From NCBI RefSeq assembly GCF_988243305.1, contig NZ_OZ547136.1: 64,000 nt of DNA; one strand, given 5' to 3'. The stretch's first letter is position 1, and each line of letters opens with the position of its first letter. This document shows, piece after piece, positions 16,401 through 19,332 of this stretch. Position numbers: made by a program.

Positions 16401-19332
16401 CTACCATGTACCACACGTTAAAAGCCTGATTATCCAGACCTGGCAGCGTCTGAAAGGCTTCGTTCTGCGTGCTGGTAAAGTGATTATCATCGTCAGCATT
16501 TTCCTGAGTGCTTTCAACAGCTTCTCTCTGAGCGGGAAAATCGTCGATAACATCAACGACTCGGCGCTGGCTTCCGTCAGCCGGGTGATCACCCCAGTCT
16601 TCAAGCCGATTGGCGTGCATGAAGATAACTGGCAGGCAACGGTTGGCCTGTTTACAGGCGCAATGGCGAAAGAAGTGGTGGTGGGTACGCTCAACACCCT
16701 CTACACCGCAGAAAATATTCAGGACGAAGAGTTCAATCCGGCGGAATTTAACCTCGGTGAAGAGCTGTTCAGTGCGGTAGATGAAACCTGGCAGAGCCTG
16801 AAAGACACCTTCAGCCTTAGCGTACTGATGAACCCGATTGAAGCGAGCAAAGGCGACGGCGAAATGGGTACCGGGGCGATGGGTGTGATGGATCAGAAAT
16901 TCGGTAGCGCAGCTGCCGCATACAGCTACCTGATTTTCGTCCTGCTGTACGTACCGTGCATCTCGGTGATGGGGGCTATCGCGCGTGAATCAAGCCGTGG
17001 CTGGATGGGCTTCTCCATCCTGTGGGGGCTGAATATCGCTTACTCGCTGGCAACATTGTTCTATCAGGTCGCCAGCTACAGTCAGCACCCAACTTACAGC
17101 CTGGTGTGCATTCTGGCGGTTATCCTGTTTAACATCGTGGTTATCGGTCTGCTGCGCCGCGCGCGTAGCCGGGTGAATATCGAACTGCTGGCAACGCGCA
17201 AATCGGTAAGCAGTTGCTGCGCAGCCAGCACCACCGGTGATTGCCATTAATGGCTTCACTTATTCAGGTACGTGATTTGCTGGCGTTACGGGGCCGTATG
17301 GAAGCGGCCCAGATAAGCCAGACATTGAACACGCCGCAGCCAATGATTAACGCCATGCTGCAACAGCTGGAAAGCATGGGCAAAGCCGTGCGGATTCAGG
17401 AAGAACCTGACGGCTGCCTCTCTGGCAGTTGTAAAAGCTGCCCGGAAGGCAAAGTCTGTCTGCGCGAGTGGTGGGCGCTGCGTTAACCATACTCCATCGC
17501 CTGTTTTGAAAAGCCCGGTATGCGTTTGCATCCGGGCTTTTTTGCGTGCGGCTTTCCATAAAAATGCAATTCTTGCAGCGCGACGTAAGTTCCTCTGAAA
17601 GCGTCTCGCAGGGATGAAAACTGGCTAATGCACAGGTGTGGAGTGGCGCGTAGAGTCGCGGCATTCAAATAACAGGTGAAGGAACGCCATGAGCAAAAAG
17701 CAGAGTTCCACCCCACACGATGCGCTGTTCAAACTCTTTTTACGCCAACCGGAGACGGCACGCGATTTTCTTGCGTTTCATTTACCGGCACCCATTCACG
17801 CGCTCTGTGATATGAAAACCCTCAAGCTGGAGTCGAGCAGCTTTATTGATGACGATCTGCGTGAAAGCTATTCCGACGTGCTGTGGTCGGTGAAAACGGA
17901 ACAAGGACCAGGATACATCTATTGTCTGATTGAACATCAAAGCACCTCAAACAAACTGATCGCATTTCGCATGATGCGTTACGCTATTGCCGCAATGCAA
18001 AATCACCTTGATGCCGGATACAAAACGTTGCCGATAGTGGTGCCATTGTTGTTTTACCACGGTATTGAAAGCCCCTATCCCTATTCGCTGTGTTGGCTGG
18101 ATTGTTTTGCCGATCCCAACCTGGCAAGGCAACTTTATGCCTCTGCATTTCCGCTGATTGATGTCACCGTCATGCCTGATGATGAAATCATGCAGCACCG
18201 ACGTATGGCGCTGCTGGAGTTAATTCAAAAACATATTCGTCAACGCGACCTGATGGGGTTGGTAGAGCAAATGGCCTGCTTATTAAGTAGTGGATACGCT
18301 AATGACAGACAAATCAAAGGGCTGTTTAATTACATCTTGCAAACCGGCGATGCGGTACGTTTTAACGATTTTATCGACGGTGTTGCCGAACGTTCACCGA
18401 AACACAAGGAGAGTTTAATGACTATTGCGGAAAGATTGCGGCAGGAGGGGGAACAATCCAAAGCCTTGCATATAGCAAAAATAATGCTTGAATCCGGAGT
18501 CCCTCTTGCAGACATCATGCGTTTTACCGGGGTGTCAGAAGAAGAGTTGGCTGCGGCGAGTCAGTAAAATTCTGTCTCGCCATTTCAAAAGCCACCTACA
18601 CCCTCTGCTTCAACGCCACCAGCACGTGACGAAACTCGACCGGATGCGAAATAAACGGCGCATGGGCCGCTTTGGCGAAAATGTACGACTCGCTGTGCGG
18701 CCAGAGTTTATCCAGCATCGGCACCACTTTGCGCGGCACCAGACCATCGAGATAACCATACAATCGCAAAAACGGCATGGACACGTTTTGCAGCGGCTGA
18801 CGGAGATCGACCGTTTTCAGGATTTCCAACCCACCATTGAGCACGTCCACCTCCGGCATCGGTAACGCCAGTACGGTTTTCTTCAACGCCCGCGCATCCT
18901 GGCGCGCCGTTTCAGTACCCATGGTTTGTAACGCAAGGAACCGTTCCACTGTACGCTGAAAATCATCACTGAGTTGCTGCTGAAATCCCGCCAGCACGTC
19001 CGGTTTTATCCCCGGCCACTCGTCACGAGCACTAAAACAAGGCGATGACGCCACGGTGACCAGTGCCTGAACACGCTCGGGATGGGTTAACGCAATCTGG
19101 CTTGCCACCAGCCCACCCAGACTCCAGCCTAACCAAATGGCTTTATCAGGTGCCTGTCGCAGCACGGCTTCGGCCATATCAGCAAGCGACAGCGCACCAA
19201 ATCCCCGACTGCGCCCGAAACCGGGCAGATCAACAAGGTGCAGCGTAAAATGCGAGCTAAGTTCCTCGTCAATGCAACGCCACACTTCGGCATTCAGTCC
19301 CCATCCGTGCAGCAGCACAAGATGAACATTCC

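Follow-up and report, generated by a model that had tools for sequence, protein, structure and literature searches.

The open reading frame at 17689..18567 of the window (the whole stretch of 64,000 nucleotides analysed here) raises the question of whether it is a domesticated transposase-like gene, as a preliminary description of this DNA suggested, or a gene with another function, and whether it has any bearing on a nearby acquired island. The frame lies on the forward strand, is ATG-initiated and comprises 292 codons plus the stop; its full-length product, RpnA_L (292 aa, 33.2 kDa), would be a PD-(D/E)XK DNA endonuclease with the role of a toxin. The Transposase_31 (YhgA-like) domain, Pfam PF04754, covers residues 8-209 (17710..18315) together with the PD-(D/E)XK core, with an E-value of 3e-91 over profile positions 1-202 of 203, and the NCBIfam equivalog NF007361, 'recombination-promoting nuclease RpnA', matched residues 1-292 of 292 with 691.6 bits (curated cutoff, 583 bits). 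The protein is identical to RpnA of K-12 MG1655 (b3411) at 288 of 292 positions (98.6%), and the four changes (D22E, M116I, K144N and L282V) are all conservative; no functional difference from the K-12 protein is expected. At the nucleotide level 23 of 879 positions differ, corresponding to codon changes of which 19 are synonymous and 4 nonsynonymous, a ratio that suggests purifying selection on rpnA. Furthermore, the gene is located between feoC (17241-17486), itself next to feoB (14917-17250), and bioH (18596-19366, minus strand), with gntX beyond it (19341-20087), and this gene order is shared with K-12 and other E. coli. These neighbours, with the rest of feoABC and nfuA, are housekeeping genes and do not form a defence island. 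According to its sequence, the frame is therefore an intact copy of the chromosomal E. coli rpnA (yhgA), belonging to the common K-12 type, and the gene name and the Transposase_31 family given in the preliminary description were right. It had also been called a conserved core gene, which holds for the locus, occupied in 5424 of the 5426 complete E. coli genomes that formed our survey sample, but less so for the gene, since in about 14% of complete genomes the copy has an internal deletion and is frameshifted.

As to its function, it is very likely that rpnA is a nested toxin-antitoxin gene of the K-12 type, encoding RpnA_L and RpnA_S, with phage defence as its probable natural role. The rpn genes have been shown to be gene-within-gene toxin-antitoxin systems (Zhong et al. 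2023, PNAS, PMC10400941). In K-12, RpnA_L is a Mg2+-dependent, Ca2+-stimulated DNA endonuclease with little sequence specificity (PMC5350276) that, when unopposed, causes DNA damage and growth inhibition (PMC10400941). RpnA_S comprises 49 aa, its translation beginning inside the gene at M244, reportedly on an internal transcript; it is a helical dimer that forms a 2:2 complex with RpnA_L via the shared C-terminal domain, which blocks cleavage (PMC10400941). The window gene would likewise yield two proteins, the nuclease toxin and an in-frame antitoxin; RpnA_L would cut DNA and inhibit growth unless bound by RpnA_S, whose dimer would prevent cleavage by binding the toxin through the domain that both have in common. 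Being 98.6% identical to the K-12 protein, the window allele should behave like it in activity, toxicity and inhibition, and nothing in the window sequence speaks against the toxin-antitoxin reading. Phage protection has been reported for the plasmid paralog RpnP2 only, with no antiphage phenotype for chromosomal RpnA (PMC10400941), and by analogy the chromosomal protein may also defend against phage. The PADLOC 2023 library gave no match for either RpnA_L or RpnA_S, and our search of the literature on RpnA since 2023 turned up only Zhong et al. and its commentary.

The residues that a nuclease toxin would need are all present. The catalytic codons D63 (17875-17877), E82 (17932-17934) and Q84 (17938-17940), together spanning 17875..17940 on the forward strand, make up a D...E-x-Q motif, which is the family-typical variant of D...(D/E)xK. 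Mutation of D11, D63, E82, Q84, R94 or D165 altered the phenotypes of K-12 RpnA (PMC5350276), and the window protein keeps all six at the K-12 positions. The PD-(D/E)XK fold is assigned on the strength of the literature that PMC5350276 cites; a PDB sequence search found no full-length Rpn structure, and an AF2 model built on a shallow alignment of 15 allele sequences reached a mean pLDDT of 47.9, with residues 1-142 below 50, which is too low for an independent confirmation of the fold.

An internal Shine-Dalgarno sequence, AAGGAG (18406..18411), is read 6 nt 5' of an in-frame ATG at 18418, which is codon M244 of RpnA_L, and from there to the common stop runs rpnA_S (18418..18567, forward strand), coding for the 49-aa antitoxin and oligomerisation domain. 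The predicted anti-Shine-Dalgarno pairing of AAGGAG, -8.5 kcal/mol, is the strongest among 26 in-frame start candidates, and that of the full-length start (GAAGGA, 17678..17683) is weaker at -5.7 kcal/mol. Both the internal Shine-Dalgarno sequence and the M244 start are identical to those of K-12, in which the triple mutant K240R+E241D+M244L of the internal start abolished RpnA_S (PMC10400941). The calculated mass of 5.36 kDa agrees with the published 5.4 kDa (PMC10400941). Moreover, the window RpnA_S is identical in 48 of 49 residues to chain A of PDB 7TH0, the crystal structure of RpnA_S (E = 6.8e-23), the sole difference being an L to V change at RpnS residue 39, and residues 240-290 of the shallow-alignment AF2 model are all-helical with pLDDT 74-84, in agreement with the three-helix dimerisation domain expected of an Rpn_S product. 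A Pfam scan of RpnA_S alone returned sub-threshold noise only, with a Pfam set that apparently did not include PF27070; this family, HTH_Rpn_C, is listed for RpnA in precomputed annotations. The window gene thus has all the sequence features that mark the internal antitoxin start. An internal translation start yielding RpnA_S is an established architecture that the preliminary description did not mention.

A GC-rich hairpin followed by a T-run at 17510..17547 (forward strand) is the predicted intrinsic terminator of feoC; the segment 17501-17560 folds at -25.6 kcal/mol, with TTTTTT after the hairpin, and the terminator sequence is conserved in all five aligned strains. Since this terminator sets rpnA apart from the feoABC operon, we infer an independent rpnA promoter within 17548-17688. 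The best candidate there, a weak one from a relaxed scan, is TGCACA (17629-17634) with TAGAGT (17651-17656), and a strict sigma-70 consensus scan of 17400-18700 found no site. For the internal rpnS start the relaxed scan returned weak candidates only, such as an extended -10 AATCAT at 18186, and consensus scanning did not locate an internal rpnA_S promoter.

Several known systems help to place this gene. K-12 RpnA (YhgA, b3411; Kingston et al. 2017, J Bacteriol; Zhong et al. 2023; 7TH0) has the same locus, synteny and length of 292 aa, and shares with the window protein the mutationally defined residues, the internal Shine-Dalgarno sequence with M244 and the basal repeat number, the differences being the 4 substitutions and 23 nt changes given above. 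RpnP2_LS, from a plasmid of E. coli ECOR13, belongs to the same family and follows the same gene-within-gene logic, a likeness that we take from its description in PMC10400941; RpnP2 is the only Rpn for which phage protection has been demonstrated (T-even and BASEL phages; PMC10400941) and is plasmid-borne, whereas the window rpnA is chromosomal, in a housekeeping context, and is neither a plasmid nor a defence-island copy. In classical type II toxin-antitoxin systems, as in Rpn, the antitoxin is a protein that neutralises a protein toxin by direct binding, and in some lineages, as for rpnA, the toxin part is lost and the antitoxin kept. However, type II systems consist of two adjacent genes, while RpnA_S corresponds to the toxin's own C-terminal domain, made a second time from a start codon within the same frame; because RpnA_S is part of RpnA_L, toxin and antitoxin must co-evolve. 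Finally, RpnA resembles other PD-(D/E)XK nucleases, such as restriction endonucleases and the TnsA protein of Tn7, in its D...E-x-(K/Q) motif, metal-dependent cleavage and production of 3'-OH ends (PMC5350276), but it differs from them in having Q for the canonical K, in its Ca2+ stimulation and in its little sequence specificity, and from restriction endonucleases and TnsA in lacking a partner methylase or a transposition machinery.

Among the other explanations, the one that fares best, unlikely as we consider it, is that RpnA physiologically promotes RecA-independent recombination and aids the integration of horizontally acquired DNA, and so perhaps shaped the island or the local mosaic. 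Overexpressed RpnA-D did increase RecA-independent recombinants and induce SOS (PMC5350276), which is the part of the earlier link to recombination and DNA uptake that stands; against a physiological role, deletion of rpnA-D left basal RecA-independent recombination unchanged (PMC5350276) and the overexpression constructs unknowingly co-expressed RpnS, which confounds their interpretation (PMC10400941). The island itself (38163-48820) is a fimbrial operon interrupted by an IS10 with a nested IS3-family element. From the rpnA stop it is 19.6 kb to the left edge of the island (38163) and 24.8 kb to the IS insertion (43330), so the earlier figure of about 25 kb is roughly right for the insertion. 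Only 232 of the 5426 complete E. coli genomes have the island, against 5424 with an occupied rpnA locus, and K-12 has an intact rpnA without the island. The two are therefore independent of each other, and the earlier remark that the gene was probably unrelated to the insertion has been borne out. Also in favour of a recombination role is that rpnA lies inside a ~24-kb block (window ~14-38 kb) that is ~2% divergent from the nearest complete genome, otherwise 99.9% identical, and that ends near the left edge of the island. However, the block aligns collinearly and with few gaps (7 gap openings in 40 kb), and its alleles are found in other E. coli at 99.85%, so that it looks like an ordinary homologous allelic replacement. 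That breaks made by native RpnA_L seeded the block, or that L282V retunes the affinity between toxin and antitoxin, is very improbable, and no observation requires either; V282 is a common polymorphism, present in other alleles.

It is just as improbable that the window rpnA is a functionless relic drifting toward loss. What speaks for this is that about 763 of 5424 complete genomes (~14%) have lost 437 or 254 bp inside the gene, with a frameshift, and that both deletions remove D63, E82 and Q84 and so kill the toxin, together with the failure to detect full-length RpnA_L made from its native locus in K-12 under the tested conditions (PMC10400941), which also counts against the toxin-antitoxin reading. 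On the other hand, the window gene is full-length and keeps every key residue, its ratio of synonymous to nonsynonymous changes against K-12 is 19:4, and the N-terminal 254 residues of RpnA are almost invariant among alleles. The RpnS part, in turn, occurs in alternative cassettes, and in both of the deleted copies examined the RpnS ORF was intact and protein-identical to that of the window. This pattern of an invariant N-terminus, alternative RpnS cassettes and deletions of the toxin fits a toxin-antitoxin module; it illustrates the published model and does not extend it.

The weakest explanation, to which we give practically no credence, is that rpnA codes for a transposase, or is what a mobile element has left behind in the form of a domesticated or ISNCY-type transposase: the name of its Pfam family, Transposase_31, some database entries that call members of the RpnA cluster ISNCY family transposase, and a second NCBIfam match titled 'ISNCY family transposase' (NF007418, 414.8 bits) point that way, but this score is below the 583-bit cutoff of that model, there are no terminal inverted repeats or target duplications around the gene, the catalytic motif is of the PD-(D/E)XK nuclease type, and 5424 genomes have rpnA once, always at the same locus (median, one place per genome). 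In the search for IS-like or inverted repeats flanking rpnA, the only 15-nt inverted pair lay inside feoC and the 3' end of rpnA. Moreover, no autonomous transposase with a PD-(D/E)XK fold is known (PMC10400941), and Zhong et al. (2023; PMC10400941) explicitly dispute that Rpn works as a transposase. The transposase reading is effectively refuted already, and the earlier label of domesticated transposase is not supported. The annotation of rpnA as a transposase relic, or as a recombination factor tied to the island, should be dropped, and the locus is better annotated as two overlapping coding features, the rpnA_L toxin and the rpnA_S antitoxin at 18418..18567.

This corrected annotation is the useful outcome of the analysis, as there is little discovery value in the window gene, which is an already catalogued, ordinary allele of a characterised E. 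coli gene. The lack of any complete E. coli genome with a match of at least 99% raised the idea of an unusual allele; we rejected this since the whole 14-38 kb block, and not just rpnA, is divergent from the nearest complete genome, and since there are matches of 99.7-99.85% in draft E. coli assemblies and an identical protein is on record under the name of E. coli RpnA for 369 contigs. One such draft assembly is 99.85% identical to window positions 14689-21568. The variation among strains at H261 (codon 18469..18471, forward strand), the published insertion point of strain-variable four-amino-acid repeats (PMC10400941, Fig. 4 legend), also places the window on the common side: it has the basal K-12 repeat number with no extra repeat and is of the majority, K-12-type allele, and the alternative RpnS cassette, with 4 aa more exactly at H261, is present in 854 of the 5426 genomes (~16%).

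The rpnA (yhgA) gene occupies 17689..18567 on the plus strand, exactly where the preliminary description had placed it, and it is the sole long ORF there (ATG start, 292 codons), the ORFs overlapping it on either strand being all short (≤125 aa) and without support. The product matches the NCBIfam RpnA equivalog end to end, scoring 691.6 bits (curated cutoff, 583), and its residues 8-209 match Pfam PF04754 (Transposase_31, 'YhgA-like'; E = 3e-91). Upstream of rpnA lie feoB (14917-17250) and feoC (17241-17486), the latter followed by a strong terminator (17510-17547) that sets rpnA apart from the feo operon, and downstream lies bioH (18596-19366, minus strand), convergent with rpnA and 28 bp from it, with gntX (19341-20087) beyond. 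This feoB-feoC-rpnA-bioH-gntX order is that of K-12 MG1655 and recurs in all the other E. coli records examined. The equivalog score, the synteny, and the 98.6% identity to K-12 together identify the predicted product as an RpnA ortholog. The gene is real, rightly placed, rightly named, and already known; the identical 292-aa sequence is catalogued publicly as 'recombination-promoting nuclease RpnA [Escherichia coli]', from 369 contigs.

Compared with K-12 rpnA (b3411), 23 of 879 nt differ, and the changed codons are 19 synonymous and four nonsynonymous (D22E, M116I, K144N, and L282V). Mutation of D11, D63, E82, Q84, R94, or D165 altered the phenotypes of K-12 RpnA (Kingston et al. 2017, PMC5350276), and all six residues are kept at the same positions in the window. 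The catalytic signature reads D63...E82-H-Q84, the family's Q-for-K variant of the PD-(D/E)XK motif. An AF2-type model predicted from a shallow alignment had a mean pLDDT of 47.9, with values <50 across residues 1-142.

The 3' end of the gene holds a second ORF in the same frame. An internal Shine-Dalgarno sequence, AAGGAG (18406-18411, plus strand), precedes an in-frame ATG at 18418 that corresponds to M244 (the DNA reads ...CAC AAGGAG AGTTTA ATG...), opening a nested ORF, rpnA_S (18418..18567, plus strand), of 49 aa and 5357 Da (published size 5.4 kDa). When the 15 nt upstream of each in-frame ATG, GTG, or TTG in rpnA (26 candidates) were paired with the anti-Shine-Dalgarno sequence, M244 had the strongest pairing (-8.5 kcal/mol), followed by another internal site (-6.9), with the annotated rpnA start at -5.7. 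The small protein is identical at 48 of 49 positions to the RpnA_S crystal structure (PDB 7TH0), the single change being an L to V at RpnS residue 39, a common polymorphism that is the L282V of full-length RpnA (RpnA_L). K240, E241, M244, and H261 are all in place, and the extra four-residue repeat is absent from this allele, as in K-12. A strict consensus scan of 17400-18700 returned no sigma-70 sites and a relaxed scan only weak candidates, so that the internal rpnA_S promoter was not placed. PF27070 ('HTH_Rpn_C') is given for this protein in precomputed annotations; scanning our Pfam-A copy with the C-terminal 49 or 105 residues gave no match to it, the copy apparently predating PF27070.

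According to Zhong et al. (2023, PNAS, PMC10400941), RpnS small proteins are made from the chromosome and are easier to detect than the full-length Rpn proteins, RpnA_L itself not being seen. With RpnA_S removed by the triple change K240R, E241D, and M244L, RpnA_L is seen to inhibit growth. Purified RpnA_S, which crystallized as a dimer of three-helix bundles, binds RpnA_L in a complex whose mass fits a 2:2 tetramer, and it prevents the cutting of double-stranded and single-stranded DNA alike. Helix 1 contains four-residue repeats, inserted near H261, whose number is strain-variable and sets cognate specificity, and RpnP2, a plasmid paralog, protects against T-even phages (PMC10400941). Apart from the internal promoter, the window gene has every feature of this RpnLS nested toxin-antitoxin family that can be read from sequence. 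RpnA is best described as a predicted PD-(D/E)XK toxin nuclease whose antitoxin is encoded within its own gene, the pair probably serving as a phage-defence module; this should replace the earlier gloss of a domesticated transposase-like recombination nuclease, and the nested rpnA_S should be annotated.

That gloss follows Kingston et al. (2017), and its recombination part stands on overexpression. As an endonuclease, purified RpnA depended on Mg2+, was stimulated by Ca2+, and showed little sequence specificity, and overexpressed RpnA-D raised the recovery of RecA-independent recombinants, lowered viability, and induced SOS; however, deletion of the four active paralogs left basal recombination unchanged (Kingston et al. 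2017, PMC5350276), and a physiological role as a recombination factor is unlikely. The transposase part is not supported. The ISNCY model scored below its cutoff, no inverted repeats were found flanking rpnA, and each genome carries a single fixed copy. Zhong et al. (PMC10400941) likewise made the case that Rpn proteins are not transposases, given that inverted repeats and target duplications are absent, that the ends of the gene region are variable, and that this fold is not known from any autonomous transposase. Finally, the intact ORF and the 19:4 ratio of synonymous to nonsynonymous changes contradict the reading of rpnA as a decaying relic.

The 879-bp gene was matched in 5424 of 5426 complete E. 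coli genomes, nearly always as one chromosomal copy, but at least 80% of it was covered in only 4661, about 763 genomes falling below 80% because of internal deletions. Calling rpnA a core gene is therefore fair for the locus, although the toxin is lost in ~14% of genomes. A 437-bp deletion (rpnA nt 78-514) and a 254-bp deletion (nt 37-290) each cause a frameshift and remove D63, E82, and Q84. In both deleted copies examined, from two other E. coli strains (L003 1501-1942 and L005 1501-2125), the RpnS ORF is intact and encodes the same protein as in the window, so these copies are in effect orphan antitoxins. One deleted variant has a weakened Shine-Dalgarno sequence (AAGGTG). The window carries the majority allele. 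RpnA alleles hardly vary over their first 254 residues and differ mainly past G254, the pattern described by Zhong et al. for Rpn. An alternative RpnS cassette, four residues longer at the H261 site, is found in 854 of 5426 genomes; at the rpnA 3' end of E. coli 19KM1776 (L004 2263-2480) a K-12-type tail remnant persists downstream of it, as does an extra 32-codon ORF (MTDAEREYLISYLIGYLLGRRLEALDIAKRML). This looks like replacement via recombination.

The window is collinear with K-12 except at 38163-48820, between glpD and glgP, where it carries a chaperone-usher fimbrial operon 99.3-99.6% identical to that of E. coli strain Z1323HEC0462 (NZ_CP148331.1), the nearest complete genome; in K-12 this site holds 437 bp of unrelated sequence (yzgL). 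The usher gene is split at 43330-45971 by an IS10, recognized by its end sequences, an RNA-OUT Rfam match (43375-43444), a 9-bp target duplication, and an IS4-family transposase; the insertion shows the usual marks of IS10 transposition. Its transposase ORF is truncated by a nested element, assigned to the IS3 family from its inverted repeats (44490-44518 and 45779-45807), its minus-strand orfA/orfB, and an ALIL frameshift pseudoknot (45352-45468). The rpnA stop lies 19.6 kb from the left edge of the island and 24.8 kb from the IS insertion, in rough agreement with the 'about 25 kb' first estimated. An island-specific probe hit only 232 of 5426 complete genomes, rpnA being near-universal; K-12 has an intact rpnA and no island, and Z1323HEC0462 has an intact rpnA and the island without the IS. 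Nothing in these distances, counts, and genomes ties rpnA to the island, which bears out the caveat of the preliminary description that the two are probably unrelated. An Rfam match to the ES036 (CssrF) sRNA (38073-38115, minus strand; 43.6 bits, just above the 37.6-bit gathering score) sits in the glpD-proximal flank, directly to the left of where the island begins.

A match of ≥99% to rpnA is lacking in every complete E. coli genome, because the whole block of ~14-38 kb (feoB to glpD) is divergent. Mismatches to Z1323HEC0462, counted per kilobase, number 0-1 at 2-14 kb and beyond 38 kb (99.9% match in the flanks), and the block between is ~2% divergent and patchy, with up to 48 per kb. The right end of this ~24-kb mosaic is near the left edge of the island. 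The block is an ordinary recombination mosaic, not specific to rpnA, and draft E. coli genomes carry the same alleles, among them GCA_016107805.1, with 99.85% identity across 14689-21568.
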